From the IMG/VR virus record IMGVR_UViG_2595698888_000001, positions 64,001 through 128,000 of that record: a DNA stretch of 64,000 bases. The stretch is one strand, 5' to 3'. The notes below the pieces were generated by a model, which saw only the letters and a list, made by a program, of their open reading frames with translations, made no database searches and was not told the origin of the DNA. This stretch comes from a virus (lineage: Duplodnaviria > Heunggongvirae > Uroviricota > Caudoviricetes). The translations under genes and the position numbers were made by a program. Below, piece after piece: positions 1-64,000 of this stretch; the stretch's first letter is position 1; each line of letters starts with the position of its first letter.

Positions 1-1
1 A

Positions 2-655
2 GTTTGTAACATTGCAACCTTCCATATCAATTACAACAAAATACATAACTTTTATAACAAAATGCGTACTGGATTGGTGAACTATGAACCTAACGCGGGT
101 CATCATTTTATTGCTGAAATGCAGAAAAAATATGGCGATGAGCGGGTAATGCATATTACTGCGAATGTTGATGATCTAATTGAACGTGCTGGTGGTTCAG
201 CTATGCATGTTCATGGATTCCTTACTGAAGTCATTGAACCATACAGTACTAATTCGTCTGATTATGAAGTAAAAGATATTGGATATACTGAATTTACACC
301 AACACCTGGGGTACTTTCTAAACCAAATATTGTTATGTTCGGCGAAACCTTCTGGTTCACTGATGGTAAACGTAAACAGATTTACGATGACCTTTATAAA
401 GTACTAGATAGTGTTACTGCACGTGATACTTTTATTATCGTTGGTTCATCTGATACAGTTATTCCGTGGTCTGTATATGCTGGAGTTGCAACAGCCGCAC
501 CGGTTGTTAACATTAATCCAGAAGTTCATAAAAATGATGACCTATTTACATACAATCTGTATCGGCCTTTTACAGAAACACTCGACACTGTAGAAGAATT
601 TATCAGTCAACGTATGGATTATAAAGATTTGAGCAGTGAGACTAAGGATTTGTAA
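2..655 (+). CDS. Sir2/sirtuin-family NAD-dependent deacylase, 5'-truncated by the window edge
   Basis: Frame is open from position 2 (..FYNKMRTGLVNYEPNAGH). Sirtuin motifs PNAGH, HITANVDDLIERAG (TQNVD-like), HVHG, KPNIVMFGE, IVGSS. No Zn-binding CxxC pairs. Confidence 0.85.
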   Translation, partial: VCNIATFHINYNKIHNFYNKMRTGLVNYEPNAGHHFIAEMQKKYGDERVMHITANVDDLIERAGGSAMHVHGFLTEVIEPYSTNSSDYEVKDIGYTEFTPTPGVLSKPNIVMFGETFWFTDGKRKQIYDDLYKVLDSVTARDTFIIVGSSDTVIPWSVYAGVATAAPVVNINPEVHKNDDLFTYNLYRPFTETLDTVEEFISQRMDYKDLSSETKDL

Positions 656-1560
656 TGACTATGTACGAAGAAATTCCATTCGGAACACGTTCTGAACGAT
701 ATGATTGTGTGTTCGTGTGGATATATGCAAAAAACTGTACTCCATACGCAAACTATCCTTACAATGATATTCCAAATGTAAGTTTAGTACTGTCAGAATT
801 ACGTTTTGACGGATTAATGGGTGCAGTCGGTGGGATGGTAGAACATAATGATCCATGTTTAGAAATTGCCGTTCATCGGGAAGCAAAAGAAGAAATTGAT
901 TATGATTTACCAATTCAACGTTTAGAGCCGTTGGTAAGTTATAAAAATTGTGTATCTGGTTCACACAACCATGCATTTTCGTTGGAAGTATCTTACGAAG
1001 AACTTTTGGAGATTCGTAATAATGCTCATAACGGTGCACATTTTAGTGCTGAAAATGCTGGGGTGAACTTACTACATATCTGCCGTTACCTTAAAGGTAA
1101 CAAAGTAGAATGTGGTTGGAACACACTACTTGAACAACGTTTTATTGGTACGGCCAAAATGGAACTAACGAAACTTGTTCGTACTAAAAATCTGTTAATT
1201 GACTATGTTGATGACGGAAAGACTGATACTTCATACAAAATGTTTTTGGATGATTTACGTGATGTTAATCAGTACTATCCTAATGAAGAATTTGTTGTGT
1301 GCCGTACTTATCAGGAAGCTGTTGAGTATGTTAAACAACATGGAATTCCGGCATTTGTATCATTTGACCATGATTTAGGTGACACTGAAAATGAAAATGA
1401 AGAAACTGGATATACGTTCGCTAAGTTTTTAGTTGATTATATGATGGATAATCAGATTGCTACTGAATTTGAGTATCACGTTCATAGTGCAAATCCAGTT
1501 GGTGCAATGAACATCATTGCTTATTTGGATAACGCATTTAAATTTATTCGGAGTTTATAA
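655..1560 (+). CDS. NUDT16-like Nudix hydrolase fused to a cyclic-phosphate-processing receiver (cREC)-like domain
   Basis: N-terminal LRFDGLMGAVGGMVE...REAKEEI resembles NUDT16/X29. C-terminal FLDDLR..SFDHDLG..GY..HVHSANPVG matches the cREC receiver-like pattern. Confidence 0.7.
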   Translation: MTMYEEIPFGTRSERYDCVFVWIYAKNCTPYANYPYNDIPNVSLVLSELRFDGLMGAVGGMVEHNDPCLEIAVHREAKEEIDYDLPIQRLEPLVSYKNCVSGSHNHAFSLEVSYEELLEIRNNAHNGAHFSAENAGVNLLHICRYLKGNKVECGWNTLLEQRFIGTAKMELTKLVRTKNLLIDYVDDGKTDTSYKMFLDDLRDVNQYYPNEEFVVCRTYQEAVEYVKQHGIPAFVSFDHDLGDTENENEETGYTFAKFLVDYMMDNQIATEFEYHVHSANPVGAMNIIAYLDNAFKFIRSL

Positions 1561-1862
1561 TGAAAAGTTTTGTAATCTCAATTATTTTAGCATCAGCAGT
1601 AACTTTCGGAGTTAGTAAAATTATCGATGCTGCTAAAAGGACTGAGCATCAAAATGTTCATTATAATGTCGGACGAGTAGTGTCGTTAGGCCAATGCAAA
1701 GATGGAAGTTGTTCATATGGTTATACTGATATGAACAATGAATTGAAATATGCAAGTACTAGTAAACCAGTTAGTTTAGGCCAACTGGTTTACCAGGAAT
1801 GCTGGTATGAAGAAGCACAGGGAAATCAGTGCTACGTTGATTATACTCCCAGCAATAACTAA
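1560..1862 (+). CDS. hypothetical exported or membrane-anchored protein
   Basis: 100-aa ORF overlapping the upstream stop, hydrophobic N-terminus, four Cys. Confidence 0.7.
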   Translation: MKSFVISIILASAVTFGVSKIIDAAKRTEHQNVHYNVGRVVSLGQCKDGSCSYGYTDMNNELKYASTSKPVSLGQLVYQECWYEEAQGNQCYVDYTPSNN

Positions 1863-1926
1863 CAGTATTTCGGAACATTAAATACTGTTAGGAAAACAAA
1901 CGTGTTATACACACAGACAAAAAAGG

Positions 1927-3375
1927 ATGTTTATGAAAAAATATGTTCTTGACACAAACGTGATTCTTAGTGATCCTCATGCAGTCCTAGCATTTGAAGG
2001 AGCACATGTAATTCTTCCGTTTAAAGTACTAGAAGAATTAGATTCCATTAAGAGTCGCAAGGTTGACATTAGTAGAGATGCACGTGTTGCAATTCGCAAT
2101 ATCAGTACTATTCTCGAAGGTGCTACCCACGAAGAAATTTCCACCACTGGTGTTCAAATTTCGAAAACCCATCCACACATTAACGCTGAGACTCGTCTTT
2201 TTGTTCTAACAATTGAAGAACTAACTGCGATACATCATTTAGCAAATCCAGAACTTGGTGATGTTGAATCATTTGATCCTAAGCTAGTTACTCTAATGAA
2301 AAGTACTGTACCTGATGATGAGATTATTCTAGTTGCAAAACTATCTCAATCAGTACTAGTTACTCGTGATATTAATATGCGTATTAAAGCACTAGCATAT
2401 GGTGTTGAAGTACAAGATTATCGTCATGATGTGACCATTCAAGACTCTGATTTGATTCATACCGGAAACCATTCAATTGAGGGTGATTTTTGGGAACATG
2501 CAGGGGATACTGTATATTCGAATCAGGAAGGTCAAAAACTTATTCAAATGATTCCAGAAGAAGTCATTAAACCATTCTTACCAGAAAATCTATGCATCGG
2601 TGATTATATCTATGATGAAGCAGATGGTCTGTTTGTATTTGAAGGTTATGCTTCCGTTCTAGATTCAGATGATGATCGTGATTTCTTAGCATTCAGTGAT
2701 GTTGGACAAACCAAAGCACTATCACGCAAAGTATGGGATATTAAAGCCAAGAACATTCAACAAGCAATGGCAATTAACAGTATTATGGACAAAGATGTAC
2801 ATCTAACGATTCTTCTAGGTCCAGCAGGTACTGGTAAAACGCTAATTACCGTTGCATCTGCACTTGAATTAGTACTAGAGAAAAAGAAATATGATCGTAT
2901 TATTTTCTCTAAAACACAAGATTCTCAGTTCGAAGAAATCGGGTTCCTACCAGGTTCAGAACTAGAAAAAGTAATGCCATTCTGTGGTGCTGCTGTCGAT
3001 GCTCTAGAGTATCTACACAAAGATGATGCTAATCCACAAGGTTCTATTGAAGAAATTATGAAACGTAATGTCTTCCAGTTTAAAGCTTTGAACTTTGTTC
3101 GTGGTCGTAGCTTCATTAACACCATTTTGATTGTCGATGAGTTCCAGAACATTACTCCTGCACAAGCTAAAACAATTCTAACTCGTGCTGGCGAAAACTG
3201 TAAAGTAATCATTATGGGTAACTTATCTCAGATTGATAACAAGTTCATCAGTCCAACTAACAGTGGTTTGACTTATGTAACTGAGAAATTCAAAGATTGG
3301 GAAGGTTGCCGTATCATTGAACTAGAAGGTGTTCAACGCTCAGTACTTGCTGAATTCGCAGAACAAAATCTATAA
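1927..3375 (+). CDS. phoH: PIN-PhoH (PhoH2/YlaK-like) RNase-ATPase
   Basis: N-terminal PIN motif YVLDTNVILSDP, Walker A GPAGTGKT, RGRSF, IVDEFQN, GNLSQID. Confidence 0.92.
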   Translation: MFMKKYVLDTNVILSDPHAVLAFEGAHVILPFKVLEELDSIKSRKVDISRDARVAIRNISTILEGATHEEISTTGVQISKTHPHINAETRLFVLTIEELTAIHHLANPELGDVESFDPKLVTLMKSTVPDDEIILVAKLSQSVLVTRDINMRIKALAYGVEVQDYRHDVTIQDSDLIHTGNHSIEGDFWEHAGDTVYSNQEGQKLIQMIPEEVIKPFLPENLCIGDYIYDEADGLFVFEGYASVLDSDDDRDFLAFSDVGQTKALSRKVWDIKAKNIQQAMAINSIMDKDVHLTILLGPAGTGKTLITVASALELVLEKKKYDRIIFSKTQDSQFEEIGFLPGSELEKVMPFCGAAVDALEYLHKDDANPQGSIEEIMKRNVFQFKALNFVRGRSFINTILIVDEFQNITPAQAKTILTRAGENCKVIIMGNLSQIDNKFISPTNSGLTYVTEKFKDWEGCRIIELEGVQRSVLAEFAEQNL

Positions 3376-3385
3376 CAAACTTTTG

Positions 3386-3409
3386 GGGATACTTCGGTAT
3401 CCCTTTTTT
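3386..3409 (+). terminator. intrinsic terminator after PIN-PhoH
   Basis: GGGATAC-TTCG-GTATCCC with cUUCGg loop, followed by a T6 run. Confidence 0.9.
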
Positions 3410-3422
3410 AATTGGAAGAACT

Positions 3423-3605
3423 ATGAAATTATCTTTTTATGCTGAAGCTGACCCACAAGTAGGTGACGGTGACATTGTTTTTTATAAAGTGATTCAGGTA
3501 AGGAAGTACTGGTTTTTAACGTTCAAGACGCAAATCGATTATGGTACAGAAAATGAAATGAAGACCCTTGCTAATAATCTTAATTTAAATCTTGGAACAA
3601 AATAA
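3423..3605 (+). CDS. small hypothetical protein
   Basis: 60-aa ORF with GGAAG RBS upstream. Confidence 0.65.
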   Translation: MKLSFYAEADPQVGDGDIVFYKVIQVRKYWFLTFKTQIDYGTENEMKTLANNLNLNLGTK

Positions 3606-3621
3606 TTTTTTATGGTATAAT
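3592..3621 (+). promoter_or_regulatory. sigma70-type extended -10 promoter
   Basis: TTGGAAC-N13-ATGGTATAAT, the same layout as at 34711, 41814 and 48515. Confidence 0.65.
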
Positions 3622-3663
3622 ATACGTAATTAATCGACAAATTAGCCTCCATTTCCGGCCTTA

Positions 3664-3677
3664 TTGATTATAATCAA
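3664..3677. promoter_or_regulatory. perfect FNR consensus box
   Basis: TTGAT-TATA-ATCAA in an intergenic region. Matches the E. coli FNR consensus TTGAT-N4-ATCAA. Confidence 0.55.
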
Positions 3678-3737
3678 CATAAATAGTTACATAATAATAA
3701 AAATATTTTTGACTCCATGTTGTTTATTACATTCTTT

Positions 3738-3762
3738 AAGGCCACGCAATGTGGCCTTTTTT
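3738..3762 (+). terminator. intrinsic terminator
   Basis: AAGGCCAC-GCAAT-GTGGCCTT followed by a T run. Confidence 0.85.
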
Positions 3763-3775
3763 ATTGGAAAAATAA

Positions 3776-4474
3776 ATGACCGACAAAACTGCAAAAATAG
3801 AAGTGGTCAATAAAATTTTTGAATACTTTCAAGAATTAGGATTTCAAAACATAGTATTCTATGGCTCATACATAGAGCAAATGAACGGTTTTGACGTTGT
3901 TCCAAATGATATTGATGTATGTATCGTTATGGACGAAGAACCACCAGAGAAGCGTCATAAGACGTTCTATTTGGGGTTCACTGATTTGCCTATCAATGTT
4001 GAATTCATGCACCGCAAGTCGTTTGAAGCAGAATTAAAATCAATGCAACCAAAGTACTTCATGTATATAAGCAACCCTGCATTACACAAAGATATTGATT
4101 CTGCATTTCAAAGTAAAGAACTTCATGAAGTACGTTCATGTATAAGTTCAGTATCTTCAAAAGCCTTTGATAAAGGTAAGAAGAAACTTACGGTAGAGAA
4201 TGACTATGATGAAGTCCTTGGTCTGAAAAATATCTATCATGCATTTAAGTTTCTATATTATGCGAAATGGTATTACTACCCTGAAATGAATCCTCCAAAA
4301 GAAGCTGAACTTCAGTTCTTGAATGAAATTCATAAAAACATTTATGAAATATATCAAAATAGTACCGGAACACTTGATGAACGATGTAAAGTACTGTTAA
4401 ATTATGTAAAAGGTTTGTATAATACCCAAATGACAGGATTTCGAATTCTATTTCCAAAACAGGTGAACACATGA
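3776..4474 (+). CDS. Pol-beta superfamily nucleotidyltransferase
   Basis: FYGS...NDIDV (GS + DxD) signature at the N-terminus, helical C-terminal part. Confidence 0.65.
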   Translation: MTDKTAKIEVVNKIFEYFQELGFQNIVFYGSYIEQMNGFDVVPNDIDVCIVMDEEPPEKRHKTFYLGFTDLPINVEFMHRKSFEAELKSMQPKYFMYISNPALHKDIDSAFQSKELHEVRSCISSVSSKAFDKGKKKLTVENDYDEVLGLKNIYHAFKFLYYAKWYYYPEMNPPKEAELQFLNEIHKNIYEIYQNSTGTLDERCKVLLNYVKGLYNTQMTGFRILFPKQVNT

Positions 4475-4677: not shown

Positions 4678-4683
4678 TAACTA

Positions 4684-5461: not shown

Positions 5462-5475
5462 AATTAGGTAATGTA

Positions 5476-9331: not shown

Positions 9332-10594
9332 ATGCATTCGGCATTAGTAGAATTACAAGAACGTGGATTAATCAAACAAAGTACTGATATTGAAGTACTG
9401 TCTAAACTACTTGACGAAGGTTCAGCAGTGTATTGTGGTTTTGATCCTACTGCCGATTCTCTGCATATTGGTAGTTTACTCCCACTGACTATCATGAATG
9501 TTTTTAAAAAACATGGAGTGAAAGTTATTGCGTTACTTGGCGGAGCAACTGGATCAATTGGTGATCCAAGCTTTAAATCTGAAGAACGTAAAATGTTATC
9601 ATGGGATGATATTGACCGCAATGTTGCTGGTATTCGTGCAGTTATTAAGAGTATTTTGGGCGATGTAGAAATTGTAAACAATTATTCTTGGACTAAAGAT
9701 ATTAATATGCTTGAGTTTTTGCGTGATTACGGTAAATGCTTCACTGTGAATAATATGATGAACAAAGAATCTGTACGTTCACGTATTGAACGCGATGAAC
9801 AAGGTATTTCTTTCACTGAATTTTCGTATCAAATTCTTCAAGCAATGGACTTTGAATATTTGTACGAAATGAATAACTGCAAAATCCAAATTGGTGGTTC
9901 TGACCAATGGGGTAATATGATTGCTGGAATTGATTTGATTCATAAAATCCACGGCAATGATGCAGACTGCGGTGTTATCACTATACCACTAGTTACTAAA
10001 TCTGATGGTACTAAATTTGGTAAATCAGAATCTGGTACTATCTGGTTAACTGAACAACGCACTACGCCATATCACTTCTTCCAGTTCTGGCGTAATCTAG
10101 ATGATGCAGAGATTCCAAAATTATATCAGTACTTTAAACCTTTTAGTTTCAGTGTTGATGATATTGTAAGTGAAATGACTAATGGTGACCCAAATATTGT
10201 AAAACTTCAGTTTGCAATTGCTATGACTGAGATGGTTCATGGGGAACATAAAGCTTCTTTGGCACGTGATATTACTGATTTCTTACATGGTAAAAAAGAA
10301 ATTACCGAAGAAGCAGTAGAAATGATGATTAAAAGTGGATTTGATGTTGATGAAAGTACTGACAACTTAGAATTAGTTTCTTTGGTGGTTAGTACTGGAT
10401 TAGCTGATTCCCGTAAAATGGCACGTGAGTTTATTAATAATGGTGCTGTAAAAATTAATGGTCGTAAAGTAAATGAATTTTACGATACTGCAAATTGTGA
10501 ATTTACAGAAGATGTAGATTTTGTAGATGCAAAACATTTTGTATTGCAGCGTGGTAAAAACACATATGTCGTTGTAAAAAATACAAGGCGTTAA
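9332..10594 (+). CDS. tyrS: tyrosyl-tRNA synthetase
   Basis: YCGFDPTADSLHIGS (HIGH), QIGGSDQWGN, KFGKS (KMSKS) and a C-terminal S4-like domain. Confidence 0.97.
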   Translation: MHSALVELQERGLIKQSTDIEVLSKLLDEGSAVYCGFDPTADSLHIGSLLPLTIMNVFKKHGVKVIALLGGATGSIGDPSFKSEERKMLSWDDIDRNVAGIRAVIKSILGDVEIVNNYSWTKDINMLEFLRDYGKCFTVNNMMNKESVRSRIERDEQGISFTEFSYQILQAMDFEYLYEMNNCKIQIGGSDQWGNMIAGIDLIHKIHGNDADCGVITIPLVTKSDGTKFGKSESGTIWLTEQRTTPYHFFQFWRNLDDAEIPKLYQYFKPFSFSVDDIVSEMTNGDPNIVKLQFAIAMTEMVHGEHKASLARDITDFLHGKKEITEEAVEMMIKSGFDVDESTDNLELVSLVVSTGLADSRKMAREFINNGAVKINGRKVNEFYDTANCEFTEDVDFVDAKHFVLQRGKNTYVVVKNTRR

Positions 10595-13153: not shown

Positions 13154-14968
13154 ATGGAGAGTCGTATGAATAACGATAGATTGTACAGTGATATTAACGA
13201 GTTTTTGAACCAAAGCAATAAAGATTTACTGAATGAAAATGCAAACAAGGATGCAAAGATTGTTAATACGCATCGCGATTTACTTGCTGGTATTCTGTCT
13301 AAACATTTTGCAGAAGATATTATTTCAGAAGATTTAATGCAATGGCATAAAAATGGTTATGGTCACATACACGATCTCGATTATTTTATAAGCCCACTAA
13401 CGAACTGTTGCTTAGTAAATTACAGAGATATGTTAGAAAATGGATTTAAGATTGGGAATGCACAAGTTGGCACTCCTAAAAGTATTGGTGTTGCAAGCAC
13501 AGTACTTACACAAATTGTATTAGCTGTTTCCGCGAGTCAATATGGCGGTCAAACACTAGCACACATTGATTTTGGACTCGAACCATACGTTCAGAAGTCC
13601 TACGATAAGCTCTTAGAGCAGCAGAAGGAATTCAACCTACCAGATGAGTTCGTTGAAAAAACCCTTCAGAAAGAGGTTTATGACGCTATGCAAGCGTTGT
13701 TATACCAGGTGAATACAATCACATCAAGTAATGGTCAAACACCTTTTGTCACTATTACTATGGGATTAAACACATCAAAATTTGGTAAAATGATTACTGA
13801 TTCGTACTTAAAAGTTCACGAAAAAGGATTGGGTGTTGATGGCACAACTCCGGTATTCCCTAAAGTAGTATTCTTCCTAGAAGATGGAGTGAATATGAAG
13901 GAAGAAGATCCCAACTACGATCTTAAAGTACAGGCAATGAAAACTTCAGCTAAACGAATCTATCCTGATTTTGTTTCAGTACCATTGAATAAGAAAGTAA
14001 CTGGCAGTACTAGTATTGCGGTTTCACCAATGGGATGCAGATCATTTCTAGGAAAATGGGATGATGGCAGTACTGAAAAATATGATGGTCGTTTTAACCT
14101 TGGAGTAGTGTCAATTAATTTACCATTACTTGCACTCGAATCAAATTCTGATGGTGAATTCTTTGGCAAGATTGACTATCACATGAATATGGCATATCGT
14201 GCACAAATGAATCGTGTCGAACGATTGAAGAATACAAAAGCACGGCAAAACCCTACTATGTTTATGGAAGGTGCAATTTCCCGTCTTGATGCAGATGACA
14301 CAATTGAAAAACTCTTCTATGACGGATACGCAAGTATTAGTATTGGTTATGTAGGCTTAGCAGAATGTTCTGAAATTATGAAAGGACAGATTGTAAAAGA
14401 TTATTGCAAATCTATTCTTCATTATATGAAATATAAATGCGAGCAATTCAAAGAAGAAAGTAATATCGCTTTTAGTTTATATGGAACTCCAGCCGAAAGC
14501 TTATGCTATAAATTTGCAAGAGCAATTGAAGAAAAGCATCCTAATATTCTAAAACGTAACTTTATTACAAACTCATTCCACCAGCCAGTGTGGATTAACT
14601 CTGGACAATTTAGCAAGTTTGATTACGAAGAAGGATTTGCATATCTAAGTAATGGTGGAAATATTAGCTATGTTGAAACCCCAAATCTTTCAAATAACAT
14701 GACTGCACTAGAAACATTAATCAATTATGCATATGAAAGAATTCCGTACTTCGGTATAAATCAGCCAGTAGATAAATGCTATAAGTGCGAGTTTGAAGGT
14801 GAATTTGAAGTTGATAAAATTGGATTCCACTGTCCACAGTGTGATAATAGAGAAGAAGGAACTATGTCAGTGATTCGCAGGGTTTCTGGATATTTGAGTG
14901 CACCTAATAGTAGACCTTTCAACACTGGCAAACAGCAAGAAGTTATACAACGAATTAAACACCAATAA
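13154..14968 (+). CDS. nrdD: anaerobic ribonucleoside-triphosphate reductase (class III), no ATP cone
   Basis: HIHDLDY, TNCCL, PMGCRSFL, NLGVVSINLP, YGTPAESLC, C-terminal CxxC..CxxC and glycyl-radical loop RRVSGYL. Confidence 0.97.
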   Translation: MESRMNNDRLYSDINEFLNQSNKDLLNENANKDAKIVNTHRDLLAGILSKHFAEDIISEDLMQWHKNGYGHIHDLDYFISPLTNCCLVNYRDMLENGFKIGNAQVGTPKSIGVASTVLTQIVLAVSASQYGGQTLAHIDFGLEPYVQKSYDKLLEQQKEFNLPDEFVEKTLQKEVYDAMQALLYQVNTITSSNGQTPFVTITMGLNTSKFGKMITDSYLKVHEKGLGVDGTTPVFPKVVFFLEDGVNMKEEDPNYDLKVQAMKTSAKRIYPDFVSVPLNKKVTGSTSIAVSPMGCRSFLGKWDDGSTEKYDGRFNLGVVSINLPLLALESNSDGEFFGKIDYHMNMAYRAQMNRVERLKNTKARQNPTMFMEGAISRLDADDTIEKLFYDGYASISIGYVGLAECSEIMKGQIVKDYCKSILHYMKYKCEQFKEESNIAFSLYGTPAESLCYKFARAIEEKHPNILKRNFITNSFHQPVWINSGQFSKFDYEEGFAYLSNGGNISYVETPNLSNNMTALETLINYAYERIPYFGINQPVDKCYKCEFEGEFEVDKIGFHCPQCDNREEGTMSVIRRVSGYLSAPNSRPFNTGKQQEVIQRIKHQ

Positions 14969-28488: not shown

Positions 28489-29349
28489 ATGGATTACAAC
28501 GGCAATTATCCGCACGAAAAGTTGGAGTTTGATACTGGTACAATCATTGTTATTAATGGTGATTGTTCTGAAGTACTGAAAGAATTACTTGAGTTGGGTT
28601 ATAAGTTTAATGCTGCAATTACTTCCCCACCATACGCAGAACAACGAAAAGATGTATACGATAGTATATCTCCTGAAGATTTTCCCGAATGGTACACAAG
28701 TATTAGTACTGATATAATGAATGTCATTCATGATGACGGTTCATACTTCTTTAATATTAAAGAACATGTAGATAAAGGTAAGAGAGATACTTACGTTTAT
28801 CGAACAATTATTGATATGTCAGAGAAGTTTAACTGGAGTGATGAATTCATTTGGAACAAAACAAATCCATTTCCAACTGGTGCAAAAACAAGATTGAAAG
28901 ATGGTTTCGAACGAATATATCAATTCAATCATAGTACAAAATATAAATTCTTTCCTGATGAAGTTAAAGTACCAAGTACTTCAAAATATTTGGAAAGTGA
29001 GAAGAAACGTAAAAATAAAGGCGAGCATAAAGTTACAAATGGTTCTTCAATGAACATGGCTAAAAGAATAGCTGAAGATATGGTTCGACCAAGTAATGTT
29101 ATCACTTGCAGTACGAGTAATTTAAATATTGGTCATCCTGCGGTTTATCCCATTGACATTCCAAATTTCTTTATTAAACTTAGTACTGAAGAAAATGATT
29201 GGGTTCTAGATCCATTTGGTGGCTCTGGAACTACTGCATTAAGTGCTATTCAGAATAATCGAAATTGTGTAATCATAGAAAAATCTGAACAGTACTATGA
29301 ATTAATAATTGAACGTCTATTACAATATGGTCGGGAGAATTATATATGA
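28489..29349 (+). CDS. orphan beta-class amino-methyltransferase, probably N4-cytosine
   Basis: Motif IV ITSPPY precedes HPAVYP and motif I VLDPFGGSGTT. SPPY is typical of m4C enzymes. Confidence 0.85.
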   Translation: MDYNGNYPHEKLEFDTGTIIVINGDCSEVLKELLELGYKFNAAITSPPYAEQRKDVYDSISPEDFPEWYTSISTDIMNVIHDDGSYFFNIKEHVDKGKRDTYVYRTIIDMSEKFNWSDEFIWNKTNPFPTGAKTRLKDGFERIYQFNHSTKYKFFPDEVKVPSTSKYLESEKKRKNKGEHKVTNGSSMNMAKRIAEDMVRPSNVITCSTSNLNIGHPAVYPIDIPNFFIKLSTEENDWVLDPFGGSGTTALSAIQNNRNCVIIEKSEQYYELIIERLLQYGRENYI

Positions 29350-34741: not shown

Positions 34742-35213
34742 TAGGGGAAGACCTGAAAAGGTTTTCCTCTAAAAACTCTGATTGATCCATAATATGGAAT
34801 AGTTTAAACCTGATCTCGTTGAAAATGTAAACAGCAGATGAGTAGTTCAATCAGTACGAGTGCAATATATTTTACCCGTTAGGAATCGGCATAGTTTGTA
34901 CCGACCACGGCAATGCGGCACTTTAAATGCGTCCTTGACATGAACGCACTAGATAGGCATTAGAGGCATACTCACCTGTTAAAAGGGAGATATTCTACGG
35001 AATATCAATAGTACTTGTTGCTGAATTAGCGAGTACTATATGCGAAGGAATGTGAAATCTTCGACCGTTGTATGCGACTGTAGTAACTGGAAACCGGACA
35101 ACCCGCCAGTGTTTGCTACAAATTTTAGATAATATAGATCCGTCCAAAATTTGAGTAAAATCTACAAATTCAGAGGTAAGACTACCACCGTCAGATATAT
35201 TCTGACTTTTTTT
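34742..35213 (+). ncRNA. candidate large structured non-coding RNA (may extend to ~35361)
   Basis: No ORF of 60 aa or more in 34711-35364, and the stretch looks more GC-rich than its flanks. At least eight helices, including GAAA- and cUACGg-capped hairpins. Terminator-like GTCAGA-TATAT-TCTGAC-T7 at 35190-35213. Confidence 0.6.
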
Positions 35214-46364: not shown

Positions 46365-46381
46365 TTTTAAGGAGTACTTTT

Positions 46382-46717
46382 ATGATCCATCATACTATTG
46401 TTTATAACGATAACATCGCTGTGTCAGAAGAATTAGAATTTCATACTTTCGATTCATTTGACAAACTTGAAAAATTTATTGGAAATGATAATGTAAGTTT
46501 TCGAACTACATATTCAAAAGAAGGTAATTCATTCAAGGTTCATTCGCATGGCGTTCACAATGGTGTGCAATTCGATGCACATGTAGTTGATGATGATATG
46601 TATAAAGGTGTTGATCTCATGGTTGCTAAGTTGGAATCCCAGCTTCGCAAAGAGAAAGGTAAACGTACTAACATCAATCGTGATGTTGACGTAAGTACTG
46701 AAGATAATGAAGAATAA
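46382..46717 (+). CDS. ribosome hibernation factor HPF/RaiA (S30AE)-like protein
   Basis: C-terminal DDMYKGVDLMVAKLESQLRKEKGK matches DMYxAID..KLERQLRKxK. Confidence 0.78.
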   Translation: MIHHTIVYNDNIAVSEELEFHTFDSFDKLEKFIGNDNVSFRTTYSKEGNSFKVHSHGVHNGVQFDAHVVDDDMYKGVDLMVAKLESQLRKEKGKRTNINRDVDVSTEDNEE

Positions 46718-53515: not shown

Positions 53516-56167
53516 ATGGCTGATTTACTATCACCTGGTGCAATTGTAACAGTTACCGATGAAACTATTAGTTCCACTAGTGGTGCAGGAACAGTACCTT
53601 TGTTTGTCATCGCTACGGCACAAGACAAGCTTGTTACTGGCAGTACTTCTGTAGCTACTGGTACAACTAAAGCGAATGCTGGTCAACTAAAACTAATTAC
53701 ATCACAAAGAAATGCTCTTGAAACCTACGGTTCACCAATCTTTCAACAAAGTAATGGTTCTGTAATTCAAGGCGATGAACTTAACGAATATGGTCTACAT
53801 GCATTATACAGCTACATGGGTATCGCTAACCGTGCTTATGTAGTTCGTGCTGATATTGACCTAGCACAATTGGCTCCATCAGGAGTTGAACCAACTGGTC
53901 CAGTTACCAATGGTACTCTATGGTTAGATACAAGTACAACCCAAATCGAAGCATATGTTGCTAAGATTGCAAACCCACAAAGTTTTTATGATTGGGCTGT
54001 TAAACCAGTAACAATCGTAAGTGCAGAAGATATTGCAAATGTTAATACTTCTGGTTTAAATGTAGATGACTTAGTACTTCGTCATATTCCAAGTACTGGT
54101 CAAATGCTAATGTACAAATATGAAGCAGTTGGTCTAGTTCAAGTAGAAACTTATCTATCACCAATTAACAAAGTACCTACAGGTAATACTGTAGAAAAAG
54201 GAAACGTATGGATTCGTGATGGTTTTACCAAAAACGGTTCTAACTACTTTGGTACTCGTTTCGTTGTTAAGCGTTATGCTTCTCTAACTTCTGTTTGGAA
54301 TTTAGTAAACGTTTGGACTGGTAATAGCTTCTATGATATTGAAGCAAAAGCTGGAACATTTGATAACACCTATTTCGGTGCACTATTTGATGAAGACAGT
54401 AAGAGTTTTTCTCTTTATACAAAAGCTGGTTCTATTGCGTCAATCAGTGCTGCTGCAACTCCAATCGGACAATCAGCATCTACTCAAGCAACCGCTGTTG
54501 GTAATTTGACTTTCAAATTCTTGAACAAATCAGTAACTGTAGTTGGTGTTAAAGTGAATGATATTATCAACACTGCAACTCTAATTTCAAACCTAAACCA
54601 AAACGCACAATTAATTAATGCTGGTTTTACATTTACTGGTACTAACGCTTTAGTAGTAAGCAACAAAAATGGTTATAGCTTCCAAATTTCTGCTAGTGGA
54701 CAACAAATGTTTACAGCAAATGAATTGGCTAAACTAAGTGTTGATAGCAATAACTATGCACTAGTTAACGTTAATAACTTACGTGTTTCTTCTGTCACCC
54801 CAACTGCTAAAGCTGCAAACGGTACATACTGGTACAATTTCAGTAACTCTGATTCATTAGCTGTTACTCTTTATACCGCAAACGTAAGTACTGAAACTTG
54901 GGATAAAATTGATGAAACCAATCAGTACGTTCAACTTGATGAACCTGCTGCGGATCGTGATTTTTGGGTTCAACCACTATCACAAGGTGTTGACGGTTAT
55001 ATTTTCTACCGTAACGTAAGTGGTACATGGGTTAAACTAGATGATACAGATCAAAGTACTTTAAATGGTATGGTATTTGATGACTTTACTTCTGGTAATG
55101 TTCCAAGTGCTGAATTGTACCAAAACGGTATGCTTGCAGTTGACTTAGGTACAACTGAAGGTGTTGTTAAAGTAATGAAAAATGGTGTTTGGACTGTCGC
55201 AAGCGGTGTTGCTCTAAACGGTGCTGGCCTATTTGGTCGTGCTGCACAACGTAATATCATTGTTGAAGCTCTAGCATCTGTTGTAATCAGTAACGAAGAT
55301 ATTCGTGCTGAAAGTATTAACTTTAACTTAATTTGTGTTCCTGGTTATGTTGAATTGCTAGATGAACTAGTAACCCTAAACACCGACCGTAAAGAAACTG
55401 CATTCATCGTAACTGATGTTCCTGCACGTTTAGCACCAAACGCAACTGATGTTCAGGCATGGGCTACTAATGCTAACAATGCTGCAAGCAATGGTGAAGT
55501 TGGTCGTTTGACTGCATATCCATATGCTGCACAATATATGGGATGGTGTTTGAGCACTAACGTTGACGGTACTGAGATTGCTGTACCAGGAAGTACTGTT
55601 GCAATGCGTACCTATGCTTACAGCGATAGCGTAAGTTATGTATGGTATCCACCAGCAGGTACACAACGTGGCGTTGTAACTAATGCTGCATCTGTAGGTT
55701 TCATTAATAGCGAAGGTGAATATGCTCCAGTAGTATATAACCAAGGCCAACGTGATACCATGTACGTTAACAAAATTAACCCAATTGCAATGCGTCCAAA
55801 TCGTGGATTGCTAGTGTACGGTGATAAAACTCTAGCTGCTGATGATACATCTGCACTAAGCCGTGTAAACGTTGCTCGTCTAGTAGTTTATATTCGTCGT
55901 CAATTAGAAATTCTAGCTGAACCATTCTTATTCCGTTTAAACACCGCAAGTACTCGCCAAGAGTTTACTTCAATTGTTAACAACTTCCTAGCTGAAATTG
56001 TTCAACTAAACGGTTTGTATGACTTCCTAGTAGTTTGTGATGAATCTAACAACACAACAACTCGTATTGACCGCAATGAACTATGGATGGATATTGCACT
56101 TGTACCAACTCGTTCAATTAACTTCATCTATATTCCAATTCGTTTGGAAAATAGTTTAAATAACTAA
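53516..56167 (+). CDS. contractile tail sheath protein
   Basis: LLSPGAIVTVTDE N-terminus. WYPPAGTQRG, INPI, YGDKT, SRVNVARLV, FLVVCDESNN, FIYIP C-terminus. Confidence 0.95.
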   Translation: MADLLSPGAIVTVTDETISSTSGAGTVPLFVIATAQDKLVTGSTSVATGTTKANAGQLKLITSQRNALETYGSPIFQQSNGSVIQGDELNEYGLHALYSYMGIANRAYVVRADIDLAQLAPSGVEPTGPVTNGTLWLDTSTTQIEAYVAKIANPQSFYDWAVKPVTIVSAEDIANVNTSGLNVDDLVLRHIPSTGQMLMYKYEAVGLVQVETYLSPINKVPTGNTVEKGNVWIRDGFTKNGSNYFGTRFVVKRYASLTSVWNLVNVWTGNSFYDIEAKAGTFDNTYFGALFDEDSKSFSLYTKAGSIASISAAATPIGQSASTQATAVGNLTFKFLNKSVTVVGVKVNDIINTATLISNLNQNAQLINAGFTFTGTNALVVSNKNGYSFQISASGQQMFTANELAKLSVDSNNYALVNVNNLRVSSVTPTAKAANGTYWYNFSNSDSLAVTLYTANVSTETWDKIDETNQYVQLDEPAADRDFWVQPLSQGVDGYIFYRNVSGTWVKLDDTDQSTLNGMVFDDFTSGNVPSAELYQNGMLAVDLGTTEGVVKVMKNGVWTVASGVALNGAGLFGRAAQRNIIVEALASVVISNEDIRAESINFNLICVPGYVELLDELVTLNTDRKETAFIVTDVPARLAPNATDVQAWATNANNAASNGEVGRLTAYPYAAQYMGWCLSTNVDGTEIAVPGSTVAMRTYAYSDSVSYVWYPPAGTQRGVVTNAASVGFINSEGEYAPVVYNQGQRDTMYVNKINPIAMRPNRGLLVYGDKTLAADDTSALSRVNVARLVVYIRRQLEILAEPFLFRLNTASTRQEFTSIVNNFLAEIVQLNGLYDFLVVCDESNNTTTRIDRNELWMDIALVPTRSINFIYIPIRLENSLNN

Positions 56168-57821: not shown

Positions 57822-57831
57822 GGAGTACTGA

Positions 57832-59384
<1,553 letters not shown>

Positions 59385-59385
59385 T

Positions 59386-59955: not shown

Positions 59956-59982
59956 AATAAAATACTGTGACTCGGAGTTAAC

Positions 59983-60528
59983 ATGAACAAATTACAGAAA
60001 ATTTTAACAGAACTTACTCCAGAATATTCATATCGTGTAAAATTTGCGTGTGAGCCAAGCTCCGAAGAATTACATAAAGTCGTCGCTAGGCTTACAGATC
60101 GTTATGATGCTTTTGAAGTTGGTCCATTAAAGAAAACAATTTTCCAAGACCGTCCTATTGATTTTTATAATCTAGATTGTGGCGAAATTTGGATGTTCGA
60201 TTTTAAATGCCATCGTGGTGTGCAACCACAAGTACTATTGTTTGAAATCGGTAGTCTATTGAAATGGTCGGAATCATTAATTCACGTTAGAAATAATTTA
60301 GACCCATATCAGGAAGAAATTTCTGATTCTGAAGATGATATTGAATTTGATGAATACGAACCACGTCTTTTAGACCCTGAATATAAAGAAGTTCCAGAAG
60401 TTAATGCTGAGGAACTAGGTGGTCAGGGTCGTGCAGATACTGCGGTTAAAGATGCATTAGACGATTATAAAAAAGGTAAAACACCATACGCAGAATATAT
60501 GTCTGCTGGATTTGGTAAGAAGGGGTAA
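59983..60528 (+). CDS. hypothetical morphogenesis-region protein
   Basis: 181 aa, GGAG RBS, TAAATA upstream. Confidence 0.75.
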   Translation: MNKLQKILTELTPEYSYRVKFACEPSSEELHKVVARLTDRYDAFEVGPLKKTIFQDRPIDFYNLDCGEIWMFDFKCHRGVQPQVLLFEIGSLLKWSESLIHVRNNLDPYQEEISDSEDDIEFDEYEPRLLDPEYKEVPEVNAEELGGQGRADTAVKDALDDYKKGKTPYAEYMSAGFGKKG

Positions 60529-60530
60529 TC

Positions 60531-61106
60531 ATGAGTCTTTTAGAAGAAATGTTTGATGGTCAACCAGAACCATTGAATGAAAGACCTTATAGCCGTACAC
60601 AGTCAGCAATTGATTCGGCAAAAGGAAAAGTAAAAGGTTTCTTTGGTTCAGGTCAAGTTGAGCAAGGTGCTCAAGAAACTGGACAAATGGCAAACCAGTT
60701 GTGGGCTGACTTTAAACGTTATATCGGTAGAAAATATGGTTCCCATCCACAATCTGTTTCATATAGTGATGTTGCTGCGTTTTTTAAAGGTAACGATTTG
60801 GACACTTCCTTTTTAGGTAATAATGAGCGTCGTTCATTTTCTCCTAAAGATGTTGGTAATGCATTAATGCAAGCTGTTCAGAAATTGAATACCGATTATG
60901 AATATCAAAAAGAAAAACAACCAGAACAAGGTGAAGAACAACCAGAACAAGGCCAAGGCCAAGGTTCAGAACAAGGTTCAGGGGAAGGTCAGCCACAAGC
61001 TGGACAAGGCCAACCACAAGGAGCAGGTGCTGGATCATCAATTCCAGATCGTTTATCTTCATTAAGTTCTGCTGATAGAGCAAAATTACTAAGACTAATT
61101 TCTTAA
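60531..61106 (+). CDS. hypothetical protein with Q/G/E-rich low-complexity linker
   Basis: QPEQGEEQPEQGQGQGSEQGSGEGQPQ near the C-terminus. Confidence 0.75.
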   Translation: MSLLEEMFDGQPEPLNERPYSRTQSAIDSAKGKVKGFFGSGQVEQGAQETGQMANQLWADFKRYIGRKYGSHPQSVSYSDVAAFFKGNDLDTSFLGNNERRSFSPKDVGNALMQAVQKLNTDYEYQKEKQPEQGEEQPEQGQGQGSEQGSGEGQPQAGQGQPQGAGAGSSIPDRLSSLSSADRAKLLRLIS

Positions 61107-61118
61107 TAGGAGAAGAAT

Positions 61119-62540
61119 ATGTTTAAATCTTTAGATAATAACAATTCGATTCCAAATAATTATGTATACACTTCCAATAAAGGTACAGAATATATGTACC
61201 TTGATGGTTCATGGCTTAACTGTGAAACTATGAGTACTGTTCCTAGTACTCATAATTTTAAAATGAATGAGTCAGCAATTCGTCAGATTGCTGAACATAA
61301 CCGACATAACAAATTACAAATCGGTAAGAAATATGTCATCAAAGAATCTGAATATGTATATGTTGGTCGCAATAACTTCACATTAAACGATAACTTATTG
61401 ACAGAAAATGTAAATTCTCGTGTTAAAATGTTGGTTGAGGCTGATGCAAAATCTGAGTTTTCTAATGTAAAATTAGGCAGTACTGAAAATATCGAAATTC
61501 CAGATAAGTTTAAACTTGATGGTTATGTATACAACAAGGCGAAAAAAGCTTGGTGGGGTACTACTGATAACGGTAACGCTGGTTATATAAAAGACCAAGA
61601 ATTAATTGATGAACTTAACAAAGATTCAATTGAACGAATTAAAAAGTATAATGAAAAAGACCCATATCCAGTAGGAACAACTGTTGACTACAATGGTAAA
61701 ACTGCAATATGGAATGGTGAAGTTTTTGTTGTTCCAGGTGAAGGTGCTTACCCACCAGGATTTGCACAACAATTTGATGATTATTTTCAAAATGTTTATA
61801 AATCTGGTAATAACAATGACAGTACTGAACAACAGGATAAAGAAGATACCGTGAATACCTCTGACAATTCAAATACTAATGAACCACAAAATACAGGTTC
61901 AACAAGTAGTACTGAAGTTCCTAACGGATTTGTGTATCAATCTGGAAAAGGCAAAAGTTATTACAAGAAAAATGGTCGCTGGTTCTCAAGTGAAACCAAA
62001 AAGCCAATTAATATGTCTTCTGCAAAACCATTAGAACGTGCTGCACAAAATGCAATTGATAAACATAATGCATCTGCATCTGTTAAAATTGGTGATACCT
62101 TTACATCTAAAAAAGGAATTACCTATAAGTATGTAGGTGGTAATAGATTTATTTCTGCTGATGGAAAACTCCTTCCAAAAGATACTGCACAAAATGTATT
62201 AAATAATTTGCGGCAACAAGCTGATGAAAAGAAAGCACAAGAACAAGGTAGTACTGACAATCAAGAGCAAGGAACAACAGAACCTGCTCCACAACCATCA
62301 ACTGAACCAACGCCTACACAGGGTGATAATACACAAGATACTAATTCTAACACCGATAATGGTTCAGATGATCCACTATCAGGACTTGCAAAACAAATTA
62401 AGTCCAACCCAGAAGCACGTAGAATTATAGTACTTCTAAGCCGTGGTGATGAATTATCTCTATTAGCTGCCGATATTCTTCTTTCTGGACAACAAAAGGA
62501 AGTTACGCAGATTCTAAATTCATTAAATAATGAAGAATAA
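61119..62540 (+). CDS. hypothetical protein with repeated small beta modules
   Basis: Repeats such as IPNNYVYTSNKGTEYMYLDGSW, VPNGFVYQSGKGKSYYKKNGRW and IGDTFTSKKGITYKYVG. Confidence 0.75.
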   Translation: MFKSLDNNNSIPNNYVYTSNKGTEYMYLDGSWLNCETMSTVPSTHNFKMNESAIRQIAEHNRHNKLQIGKKYVIKESEYVYVGRNNFTLNDNLLTENVNSRVKMLVEADAKSEFSNVKLGSTENIEIPDKFKLDGYVYNKAKKAWWGTTDNGNAGYIKDQELIDELNKDSIERIKKYNEKDPYPVGTTVDYNGKTAIWNGEVFVVPGEGAYPPGFAQQFDDYFQNVYKSGNNNDSTEQQDKEDTVNTSDNSNTNEPQNTGSTSSTEVPNGFVYQSGKGKSYYKKNGRWFSSETKKPINMSSAKPLERAAQNAIDKHNASASVKIGDTFTSKKGITYKYVGGNRFISADGKLLPKDTAQNVLNNLRQQADEKKAQEQGSTDNQEQGTTEPAPQPSTEPTPTQGDNTQDTNSNTDNGSDDPLSGLAKQIKSNPEARRIIVLLSRGDELSLLAADILLSGQQKEVTQILNSLNNEE

Positions 62541-62551
62541 TTGAAAAGGAA

Positions 62552-63514
62552 TTGATTATGAAAAAACAAATTAATGAGGCATCAGTTCGTATCGATGTTC
62601 AAGGATTAGAATCGAATGATCTTGAAACTCTTTCACGTATGCTTGCACTAGCTGGACAAGCAGAGAATAAAGGGCCACAAATGGGTGGCATGACTTCTGT
62701 TCCTGCAATTGCACCACTAGACTTAGATAGCATTGGTGGCGAGGATGAAACTCAACCTATTATGAGTCCAGATATGGCTCCTAGTGCTGATGATATGTCA
62801 GGTGCTGGTGCTGAAGAACTTGTCTCAGCAGTGAGTGATTTAGCTGGCTCAGTTACTGATTTCGGTGCTGATTCACTTGACAGCGGCGTAGAAGATGGTG
62901 TATCATCTTTCTCAGTTGGTGACGAATCCGACCTAGACTCTGGTGACATGATGGGTCAAGAAGAAGATTCAAATTACACTGGCGACGATGATTTTGATAT
63001 GAGCCGTATGTCCTCTCTTGCTGGTATTCACGAAAGCCAAGATATTGATGAATCTGATGATGTTTCTGATGATTCAGAAGATGAAGCTGATGATGAAGAC
63101 CAAGCCGTTGCAGAAAGTCTCCTACCTGATTTATCTCTAGACGAAGATTCAGTAGCTACTGAAGCTGATGCACAAAAAGAATTTGGCCCTTTCCGCACAG
63201 AATTTGAATGTGTTCAAGATGGTCAACAAAAAACTAATGGCTTCGAAGGCGATAACTTCATTGTAGTTCCAAAAGGAAATGCTTTCTATTGGAAACGTAC
63301 AATGCAAGAAGAAGTTCAAAATGAACCTAATCCTGAATTTTATGATGACGAAGGTATTCGTAATTCTCGTCATGCTTATAAAGGAAAACAACCTGGTACT
63401 GCATTAGGTGATAATCCACTTGTTGGTGAAAGTGAAGATGATGAAGATGAATCTGTAGATTCTATTTTCGAATCAATCAACAAGCAATATAAAAAATTCA
63501 TGGAGGGTTTATAA
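62552..63514 (+). CDS. highly acidic hypothetical protein (scaffold or inner-head-like)
   Basis: D/E/S-rich, located in the morphogenesis region. Confidence 0.72.
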   Translation: MIMKKQINEASVRIDVQGLESNDLETLSRMLALAGQAENKGPQMGGMTSVPAIAPLDLDSIGGEDETQPIMSPDMAPSADDMSGAGAEELVSAVSDLAGSVTDFGADSLDSGVEDGVSSFSVGDESDLDSGDMMGQEEDSNYTGDDDFDMSRMSSLAGIHESQDIDESDDVSDDSEDEADDEDQAVAESLLPDLSLDEDSVATEADAQKEFGPFRTEFECVQDGQQKTNGFEGDNFIVVPKGNAFYWKRTMQEEVQNEPNPEFYDDEGIRNSRHAYKGKQPGTALGDNPLVGESEDDEDESVDSIFESINKQYKKFMEGL

Positions 63515-63918
63515 TGAGTAACCTACGAAAATTAATGGAATCTATTGACGACATTTATGAAGCAGATGATGAGTCAATGGAACAAGAAACTGAACAATCT
63601 GCACCTGAACTATTAAAAGAAATCATCGGTTCACTAAAAGAACTTTCTGGCATGATTGCTGATGGCTCAGTTGAAGATTTAACTACAATAACTTCTGATT
63701 TAAAAAATATCTCTGCATCCCTTAAAGAACTTGTTGGTTCTGATGGTGATGACTTCGAATTCAACACTGATGAAGAATCCGATGAACCAGAAGAAGAATT
63801 AGAAGAAGAATATGGTGCAGAAGGTATGGGTCCATCTTTTGATGCTAATGGCACTCAAAATTACGAAAATCCACAAGGCTCATCATATCCTGAACAAAAA
63901 GGTTTTGTGGGAATTTAA
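63514..63918 (+). CDS. highly acidic hypothetical protein
   Basis: GGAGG RBS, TAATG overlap. Confidence 0.72.
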   Translation: MSNLRKLMESIDDIYEADDESMEQETEQSAPELLKEIIGSLKELSGMIADGSVEDLTTITSDLKNISASLKELVGSDGDDFEFNTDEESDEPEEELEEEYGAEGMGPSFDANGTQNYENPQGSSYPEQKGFVGI

Positions 63919-63921
63919 TAA

Positions 63922-64000
63922 ATGATACCAAAAACCAACAGTACTGAATATCATTATCAGGTATTAAAATCAATCAAGGAAGTTCACGAATTTAATTCTG
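63922..64000 (+). CDS. start of a gene running off the window
   Basis: ATG 63922 stays open to the end (MIPKTNSTEYHYQVLKSIKEVHEFNS). Confidence 0.5.
   Translation, partial: MIPKTNSTEYHYQVLKSIKEVHEFNS

Follow-up and report, generated by a model that had tools for sequence, protein, structure and literature searches.

The palindromic hexamer AGTACT occurs in large excess throughout the 64,000-nucleotide stretch of phage DNA analysed here (the window), which comprises bases 64,001-128,000 of the 358,663-bp virus record IMGVR_UViG_2595698888_000001, and throughout the clade of Rak2-like jumbo phages to which this record probably belongs. We found that the exact palindrome is held by selection at a high and even density across the clade, that it is densest in the terminal repeat, and that it is fixed at two positions of early promoters. 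The explanation that we favour, tentatively and with a confidence somewhat short of even, is that AGTACT is a selectively maintained DNA-level tag of the clade, read by a phage-encoded protein that recognizes DNA symmetrically. A literature search, which did not take in the original GAP32 paper, returned no description of the motif in these phages.

AGTACT is enriched as an exact word in the window and the genome

The window (positions 1-64000) contains 163 exact AGTACT sites, or 2.5 per kb, in a dispersed array in which every 2-kb bin holds 2-8 sites. Base composition alone would give 21.5 sites, and dinucleotide shuffles of the window (n=100) gave 16.1 ± 4.1 with a maximum of 31. We also used a synonymous-codon shuffle, which preserves each protein sequence and the codon usage of each gene. 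After 300 such shuffles the genes of the window carried 36.8 ± 5.1 sites (maximum 52), as compared with the 153 observed (z=22.7). The whole genome behaves in the same way: it contains 1011 sites against Markov expectations of 122, 93, 192 and 420 at orders 0, 1, 2 and 3, respectively, which is 10.8 times the order-1 value. Its genes hold 893 sites, while the synonymous shuffle gives 225 ± 14 (z=47) and a permutation of whole codons 129. AGTACT is the commonest hexamer of the genome, above the A/T-rich words, and among the six-base palindromes it alone is enriched. The original prediction, made from the letters of the window, had claimed an over-representation on the basis of a hand tally of about 40 sites by 13 kb and about 100 by 36.5 kb. 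The exact counts are 39 and 105, and the total of the window together with the shuffles bears the claim out; neither a z-score close to background nor a total of only 20-30 sites, the two outcomes named beforehand as contrary to it, was obtained.

The sites occupy all three codon phases, as had also been claimed, with counts of 67/25/61 in the genes of the window and 424/157/307 genome-wide, where a further 123 sites are intergenic or lie at gene edges. The three examples given at the time, all on the plus strand, had been read correctly. The site at 9380-9385, in a tyrosyl-tRNA synthetase-like gene (9332-10594), is in phase 0 and reads AGT-ACT (Ser-Thr); the site at 9394-9399 starts at the third codon position within GAA-GTA-CTG (Glu-Val-Leu), and the one at 1271-1276 at the second codon position within CAG-TAC-TAT. 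Occurrence in the spacers of ribosome-binding sites was likewise confirmed, since AGGAGTACT precedes the ATG codons at 46382 and 57832. The two hexamers, at 46373-46378 (taaggAGTACTtttATG) and 57824-57829 (taaggAGTACTgaATG) of the plus strand, overlap the ribosome-binding sites. Save for a few overlaps of this kind, the metagene profile of AGTACT around start codons is flat.

The excess is confined to the exact word. With the synonymous shuffle as reference, the 18 one-off variants had observed/expected ratios of 0.59-1.46, as compared with 3.96 for AGTACT itself, so that the impression that these variants are common too was only marginally true. Beyond ±1 the flanks have background composition. 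At position -1, A or C is favoured and G disfavoured, the preference at +1 is symmetric, and the sites of the related phages RaK2 and 121Q tend toward CAGTACTG. Because the hexamer is exact and its flanks are at background, a dispersed repeat is ruled out, and an origin from a repeat or mobile element was rejected on this ground. We also rejected the idea that the excess is a by-product of the purging of GGTACC and CGTACG, because the expected counts of these words (~30-85) are too few to account for 900 extra AGTACT. An exact hexamer with background flanks is a sign that double-stranded DNA is recognized here with sharp specificity and two-fold symmetry.

The excess follows the phage clade

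The nearest GenBank relative of the record is the Pectobacterium phage vB_PcaM_CBB (CBB), with about 77% DNA identity in the stretch searched and 92% identity of the sheath protein. In the annotation of CBB the closest homologues given are proteins of Cronobacter phage GAP32, and the record is probably this phage or almost identical to it. The genomes compared were CBB, BF, fHe-Yen9-04, 121Q, RaK2 and the metagenomic genomes G003 and G004, together with an outgroup and distant relatives. Whole records of the former carry 903-1235 AGTACT, whereas three distant relatives carry 57-112. In six genomes of the clade, including the present one, the observed and expected counts were 1011/93, 1235/109, 1072/98, 903/100, 937/79 and 1014/121, as opposed to 104/103 in the outgroup. 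We then scored the loci of the sheath gene in 50 related viral contigs. All relatives whose sheath identity was 66% or more had AGTACT as their top hexamer, and those at 50% or less did not, with one exception. This exception is a short IMG/VR contig (L031; 20,412 bp) with 40% sheath identity, in which AGTACT is the top hexamer with 18 copies in 13 kb against 3.5 expected; unlike it, relatives at 44-50% sheath identity do not have AGTACT on top. Either the trait extends past the core clade or it arose twice.

The hosts of the AGTACT-rich phages belong to Cronobacter, Pectobacterium, Erwinia, Serratia, Yersinia, Escherichia, Klebsiella and Salmonella, and the count of AGTACT is nearly constant over the 32-38% G+C range of the clade. 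The palindromes that have been purged differ from one member to another (GATATC, CTTAAG, GGTACC, AAGCTT), but the excess of AGTACT does not. The excess is a trait of the phage clade and not of the host. Since it tracks the clade while hosts and purged sets vary, its reader would most likely be encoded by the phage. In Escherichia coli K-12, a host of clade members such as 121Q, the extended word HAGTACTD is found in 280 copies, or 0.06 per kb, as compared with about 2.4 per kb in the phage. At this ~40-fold lower density, a protein specific for AGTACT would bind almost only phage DNA. The proposal of a DNA-level genome mark, made from the window alone, and not of a codon or peptide artefact, is upheld by an excess that survives the synonymous shuffle, extends to non-coding DNA, is restricted to the exact palindrome and is found clade-wide across host genera.

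The sites are retained and evenly spaced

Retention was measured on whole-genome blastn alignments, which cover 25-85% of the genome and are biased to conserved genes. At aligned sites AGTACT was kept more often than hexamers in general in all five comparisons: 72% versus 42% in CBB, 52% versus 27% in BF, 39% versus 17.5% in G003, 30% versus 17% in 121Q and 24% versus 15.5% in RaK2. Within the window, 132 sites align to CBB and 95 of them are conserved. Gains and losses were then polarized by parsimony with BF as outgroup. Over the record's own lineage and that of CBB, the loss rate of AGTACT was 0.18, as compared with 0.30-0.42 for eight of ten control palindromes. Retention about twice as good as that of controls, combined with turnover at a fixed total, is what weak per-site selection on the overall density would give.

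The spacing of the sites, which the original prediction had listed among its checks, departs from random in the direction of evenness. Between 50 and 340 kb of the genome, outside the dense end region, its coefficient of variation is 0.85; for a Poisson process the value would be 0.997 ± 0.036, and in 2000 simulations it never came as low. The variance-to-mean ratio over the same region falls from 0.84 in 0.5-kb bins to 0.77, 0.67 and 0.63 in 1-, 2- and 5-kb bins, and very short spacings and long gaps are both scarce. Among the 355 hexamer classes with at least 250 copies (median 1.09), the dispersion of AGTACT in 2-kb bins is the lowest. The window gives a coefficient of variation of 0.82 and variance-to-mean ratios of 0.59 (1-kb bins) and 0.46 (2-kb bins), and under-dispersion was also found in BF, RaK2, G003 and CBB. 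Heterogeneous constraint or a mutational process would over-disperse the sites; their under-dispersion argues for selection on coverage. As a consequence of the even spread of some 900-1200 copies per genome, no stretch of the phage DNA is far from a site. In this part of the genome (50-340 kb), AGTACT is missing altogether from five genes of 1-2 kb, where 2.1 such genes would be expected; perhaps they were acquired recently and have yet to gain sites.

The word leaves an imprint on the proteins

The pressure for AGTACT is strong enough to shape the proteins of the phage. Of the Ser-Thr dipeptides, 59% are spelled AGT-ACT, where codon usage predicts 15% and the outgroup has 10%, and 40% of the Val-Leu pairs are spelled A|GTA|CT, against 5% in the outgroup. 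The dipeptides themselves are also in excess. Ser-Thr reaches 1.44-1.74 times its expectation, while the reverse order Thr-Ser stands at ~1.0 and Ser-Thr in the outgroup at 1.14. Concordantly, Val-Leu reaches 1.28-1.55 times its expectation, Leu-Val about 0.93-0.95, and Val-Leu in the outgroup 0.85.

The sites peak in the terminal repeat and are built into early promoters

Each AGTACT-rich genome has one zone of 20-30 kb with 6-7 sites per kb. In CBB this dense zone is the direct terminal repeat of 22,456 bp, for which we verified that the copies at the head and tail of the genome are 100% identical. Its homologue here occupies the first 25 kb of the record, and in 121Q, RaK2 and G003 the dense zones are where fragments of the repeat align. 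AGTACT is 2-4 times denser in the region homologous to the repeat than elsewhere. In non-coding DNA the density is 10.7 per kb in the repeat zone versus 2.5 per kb outside, where non-coding DNA is no richer in AGTACT than coding DNA. Within the zone, occupancy of Ser-Thr by AGT-ACT rises to 0.68 and the Ser-Thr excess to 2.0, which shows that the peak does not simply reflect relaxed constraint. The predicted left boundary of the CBB repeat lies inside one of the densest 1-kb AGTACT clusters of that phage. A non-coding block at genome positions 2,480-3,420, outside the window, contains about 16 AGTACT in less than 1 kb and is homologous to the CBB cluster at 355,800-356,530, the one in which this boundary falls.

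Many intergenic sites of the repeat region are paired at a distance of 20-22 bp. In their common pattern, AGTAC-TTGCAA or AGTAC-TTGACA comes first; a variable spacer follows, and then a second site, AGTACT, with up to two bases between it and TATAAT. The pairs lie in strong sigma70-type early promoters, for instance at genome 7,761-7,793, each with one site abutting the -35 box and the other the -10 box. Eight promoters of this pattern were counted here, 13 per repeat copy in CBB, 12 in BF, 13 in RaK2, four each in 121Q and G003, and none in the outgroup; their spacer sequences differ between genomes. Aligned on TATAAT, the AGTACT sites peak at -7 and at -28/-29, and no association with AGTACT was seen at the late TATAAATA boxes. 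With a protein bound at both sites, the -35 box would be covered, as would the -10 box at its upstream edge. One pair in the window has the same layout as the early-promoter pairs of the terminal repeat. It lies at 35010-35037 on the plus strand (AGTACTTGTTGC...GCGAGTACTATATGC), with the two sites 22 bp apart. A hairpin had been proposed here, at 35008-35039; the two AGTACT are indeed present, whereas the hairpin is simply two palindromic sites at this distance. Outside the window, the GC-rich first gene of the genome (4,583-5,257), which encodes an H-NS-like protein, has a promoter of the same type, with AGTACT abutting the -35 box (AAAAAGTACTTGACT).

Candidate writers and readers of AGTACT

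The genome encodes three DNA methyltransferases: an SPPY enzyme of 286 amino acids, a C5 enzyme of 288 and a Dam-family enzyme of 180. The SPPY enzyme is an orphan beta-class methyltransferase of the window (28489-29349, plus strand). It has the beta-class order of motifs, among them TSPPY and DPFGGSGTT, and its nearest relative of solved structure is M.PvuII, an N4-cytosine enzyme (E=7e-20). It was found in four of the eight AGTACT-rich genomes, in the sub-clade of CBB, BF and Yen9-04 only. Since it is absent from RaK2, 121Q, G003 and G004, it was rejected as a universal writer. The C5 methyltransferase (genome 286,477-287,343) also occurs in four of the eight, namely here and in CBB, 121Q and RaK2; it was rejected because of this patchy distribution, being absent from BF, fHe-Yen9-04, G003 and G004.

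The Dam-family methyltransferase (genome 36,342-36,884) matches PF05869 with E=6.7e-27 and carries an NPPY motif, typical of N6-adenine enzymes. PF05869 was detected in each of the eight AGTACT-rich records and was missing from the three AGTACT-poor ones, and of the three methyltransferases this is the only one common to the whole clade. Its family and distribution make it a candidate writer of the AGTACT mark. The gene belongs to a run of five consecutive clade-specific conserved genes (genome 35,805-38,330), of which one is cytidylyltransferase-like and the others have no family. A D12-class Dam (PF02086) was not matched in the genome. Profiles of MutH (PF02976) and Vsr (PF03852) gave no match in the genome either, while E. 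coli as control was matched by MutH and the controls by Vsr; the RE_ScaI profile of Pfam matched neither the genome nor the control genomes.

In the search for a reader, filtering by tblastn for genes that all five ingroup genomes share and the outgroup lacks left 114 candidates, which is too many to single one out. The H-NS-like product of the first gene was rejected as a clade-wide reader: tblastn found it in CBB, in BF and weakly in G003, and at this sensitivity not in 121Q or RaK2.

A putative tag and its alternatives

We propose that a phage-encoded protein, either a binder or a modifying enzyme, would recognize the exact AGTACT in double-stranded DNA as a symmetric dimer. The word could in this way distinguish phage from host DNA and would achieve through sequence what base hypermodification achieves in T-even phages. 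The same reader would also sit on the early promoters, like an operator-bound regulator, and the terminal repeat, at the ends of the virion DNA, would be the place where the tag is most needed. The tag may in addition be methylated, perhaps by the Dam-family enzyme, and its role might be protection, compaction, transcription control or recombination. A more ambitious form of this idea, which we regard as possible but on the unlikely side, is a sequence-encoded self-identity barcode, by which about 1000 evenly spaced AGTACT, at 40 times the density of host DNA, would let a phage protein coat, protect or organize the phage DNA and shut off the early promoters of the terminal repeat, under a pressure that also rewrites the proteome.

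Several observations weigh against the proposal of a tag with a phage-encoded reader. Two of the control palindromes were kept about as well as AGTACT or better, with losses of 0.12 (ACATGT) and 0.24 (CATATG). The gain of AGTACT from conserved one-off neighbours was 0.017, no higher than for the control palindromes, and because gain is not elevated we infer that selection per site is weak, the argument for it resting mainly on retention and spacing. In one chosen stretch of 121Q, AGTACT was not under-dispersed. The profile and phyletic searches found no reader protein. Thus, a Pfam scan of 20 clade-specific conserved proteins encoded in the first 60 kb left 16 without a family and revealed none that is DNA-binding (the matches were an RNA ligase, a phosphoesterase, a dCMP deaminase and an Ig-like protein), and no TetR-type or clade-wide HTH_3 reader was found. 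As for the writer, the match of methyltransferase and motif is limited to a single clade and so represents one evolutionary event. The Dam-like enzymes of the clade are 41-47% identical to each other, and homologues with 41-45% identity in two unrelated phages from outside it (contigs L177 and L178) are accompanied by 1 and 0 AGTACT in 17-20 kb; lacking the excess, they lend no independent support to a link between enzyme and motif. The genes, finally, were called with a simple longest-open-reading-frame caller, which is crude.

In an alternative that we consider rather unlikely, AGTACT is above all the methylation site (AGTm6ACT) of the clade-wide Dam-family enzyme, and whether it is methylated is what matters, on the model of GATC with Dam, SeqA and MutH. 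Virion DNA, being fully methylated, would then be told apart from newly replicated DNA, the early promoters would be timed, and the 1000 sites would be shielded from ScaI-type restriction. The distribution of PF05869 over rich and poor records, the NPPY motif and the lack of a partner nuclease next to the gene agree with this, and so does the reported resistance of RaK2 DNA to methylation-sensitive enzymes (PMC3622015). Moreover, the paired promoter sites recall Dam-controlled promoters, and one would expect a genome that has rid itself of 28 palindromes to protect the one that it has multiplied. Methylation alone, however, would explain why the sites are tolerated and not why they are enriched ten-fold; homologues of similar identity exist in phages without the excess, and the PF02976 search yielded no MutH-like reader. 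To our knowledge, the characterized members of this Dam family act on GATC or on any adenine, which also speaks against AGTACT as their target. It is very improbable that the mark is written instead by the SPPY enzyme of the window, as an M.ScaI-like N4-cytosine enzyme. Its motif, its beta-class order and its kinship with M.PvuII would suit this role, and no nuclease adjoins it, as far as an incomplete Pfam scan of the flanking genes goes, but the four genomes that lack it have the same excess of AGTACT. Being absent from half of the clade, it is no clade-wide cause and would provide at most extra protection in a sub-clade.

A neutral origin, in which the excess would be the by-product of a very-short-patch-like correction or of biased gene conversion in recombining terminal repeats and the sites would be functionless, appears improbable to us. 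The same idea has long been debated for the cyanobacterial word HIP1 (PMC5861425). It would fit the turnover of the sites, of which only 24-30% of those aligned are shared with RaK2 and 121Q while totals stay constant, and the location of the densest zone in the terminal repeat, which must recombine or anneal. Yet neither a Vsr nor a MutH homologue emerged from the profile searches, and no single near-cognate is depleted, the T:G-mismatch neighbours AATACT and AGTATT both standing at 0.94 observed/expected. Gain from near-cognates in orthologs, which the original prediction had listed among its checks, lies within the range of the control palindromes and gives no sign of a strong ongoing conversion to AGTACT. 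A mutational process would not predict the most even spacing of 355 hexamers, nor is it favoured by a non-coding DNA that is no denser than coding DNA outside the repeat, or by promoter positions that are fixed across the clade. Nor do these results support the methylation-directed repair bias that had been offered as a source of the mark. That a conserved host protein reads AGTACT is very doubtful as well. The nucleoid-occlusion factor SlmA, through which the phage DNA might block or escape cell division, has a 12-bp site (GTGAGTACTCAC) with an AGTACT core (PMC3020112), and almost all hosts are Enterobacterales, so that another enterobacterial DNA-binding protein might also be considered. But in each half-site SlmA requires a G at position 1 and a T at position 2 (GTRAGY; PMC3020112), and only 1-2% of the half-sites fit, the same as in the outgroup. 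Among seven genomes, RaK2 alone has the full or relaxed site GTRAGTACTYAC, in one copy, while a G before and a C after the core are disfavoured, GAGTACTC being found at 2 of the 1011 sites. Furthermore, two relatives are recorded on Xanthomonas, and the trait tracks the phage clade, not the host. An action in RNA (AGUACU), or through translation or codon-pair effects, is hardly credible: with 88% of the genes on one strand, transcription reads most sites in a single sense, but AGTACT is a perfect palindrome, as are just 64 of the 4096 hexamers, its enrichment extends over the three phases and non-coding DNA, in promoters it lies upstream of transcription starts, and the enrichment survives a shuffle that preserves proteins and codon usage.

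Phage genomes are known to lose short palindromes to escape restriction. That a clade purges 28 palindromes and yet has one palindrome as its most frequent hexamer points to a strong requirement at the DNA level. If AGTACT is indeed a maintained tag, its reader, once found, could reveal a new way in which a virus tells its own DNA from that of the host. The jumbo phages concerned infect Escherichia, Klebsiella, Salmonella, Cronobacter, Erwinia, Serratia and Yersinia, and some are in development for therapy or biocontrol. In practice, the sites bear on the behaviour of these phage DNAs in digestion with ScaI, RsaI and TatI, and recoding or synthesis of such genomes would by default lose them.

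Comparison with other dispersed words and DNA marks

AGTACT shares the attributes of HIP-type words, as a palindrome many-fold above Markov expectation that is present in all frames and in non-coding DNA and is conserved above background. HIP1 itself (GCGATCGC) is conserved above background in cyanobacteria, shows a periodicity of 10-90 kb and has been proposed to play a role in chromosome structure (PMC5861425). Both words are hyper-abundant exact palindromes that occur in all frames and between genes and are conserved by selection. HIP1, however, is an 8-mer of cells with a 15- to 300-fold excess, whereas AGTACT is a 6-mer of a virus with a ~10-fold excess that is under-dispersed at the kilobase scale, peaks in the terminal repeat and is built into early promoters. 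By these features HIP1 would be the nearest analogue of AGTACT, which appears as an analogue and not a member, being a different word in phages of enterobacteria. The AGTACT phages would offer a tractable model for the old question, raised by HIP1, of what hyper-abundant palindromes do, with a small genome, laboratory strains as hosts and sites in defined promoters.

The GATC sites of Dam, with SeqA and MutH in enterobacteria, and the Dam sites of phage P1 resemble AGTACT as a short genome-wide palindrome with a conserved orphan adenine methyltransferase and with sites in particular promoters. The even spacing would be explained if, as with GATC, the function required that a site be close at hand at any point. 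The two differ in abundance, since GATC is only mildly enriched in E. coli and AGTACT is enriched ten-fold; GATC is under-represented in this phage, and the MutH profile found no such nuclease. T-even phages mark their own DNA by hydroxymethylcytosine and glucosylation. The likeness is that phage proteins treat phage and host DNA differently, but the AGTACT mark would lie in the sequence itself, possibly with methylation, and not in a replaced base. No hydroxymethylase or glucosyltransferase genes are reported in RaK2 and CBB (PMC3622015, PMC5259590).

Chi and the DNA uptake sequences are, like AGTACT, dispersed short words that are read by proteins and whose density is selected. They differ in being asymmetric and biased in orientation; AGTACT, which is identical to its reverse complement, can have no orientation and does not resemble Chi in this respect. 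Phage SPO1 has its early promoters clustered in the terminal redundancy, where the phage protein TF1 binds them. The clustering of strong early promoters in a long terminal repeat is the same here, and TF1 is a phage DNA-binding protein that prefers phage DNA and sits on early promoters; a counterpart in the present phages is proposed only, and no HU-like reader was identified in them. The difference is that TF1 recognizes DNA containing hydroxymethyluracil and not a hexamer. The SlmA site shares its central six bases with AGTACT, but the outer GT/AC contacts are absent from the phage and the inner G/C flank is avoided.

Other features of the window and genome

The genes of the window lie nearly all on one strand and include those for a T4-type tail sheath, NrdD, PhoH and RNA ligases, besides the tyrosyl-tRNA synthetase-like gene.

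Of the 64 six-base palindromes, 28 have zero copies in the genome, and for several others the count is between one and eight. The window lacks GCGC, and hardly any copies occur of three pairs of non-palindromic words (CTCTTC/GAAGAG, GACATC/GATGTC and ACTGGG/CCCAGT). The count of GATATC is 8 here, as compared with 117-162 in 121Q, RaK2 and G003, and CTTAAG, GGTACC and AAGCTT vary too. Because the purged set varies between relatives, these differences suggest host-specific restriction histories. GATC stands in the window at about half of its expectation under the maximal-order model (123 versus 224), although the phage encodes a Dam-family enzyme.

The E. coli Chi octamer GCTGGTGG is found 22 times in the genome, counting both strands, against 2.7 expected at order 1, an excess of about 8-fold. 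Three of these octamers, against 0.5 expected, are in the window, at 188-195, 14578-14585 and 55649-55656. The counts in the relatives are similar, and the outgroup has fewer. TAAATA/TATTTA is three-fold under-represented genome-wide, with 101 copies against ~280. A T4-like late promoter core, ATAAATA, has been reported for CBB and GAP32 (PMC5259590), and the scarcity of TAAATA/TATTTA fits an avoidance of stray late promoter cores.

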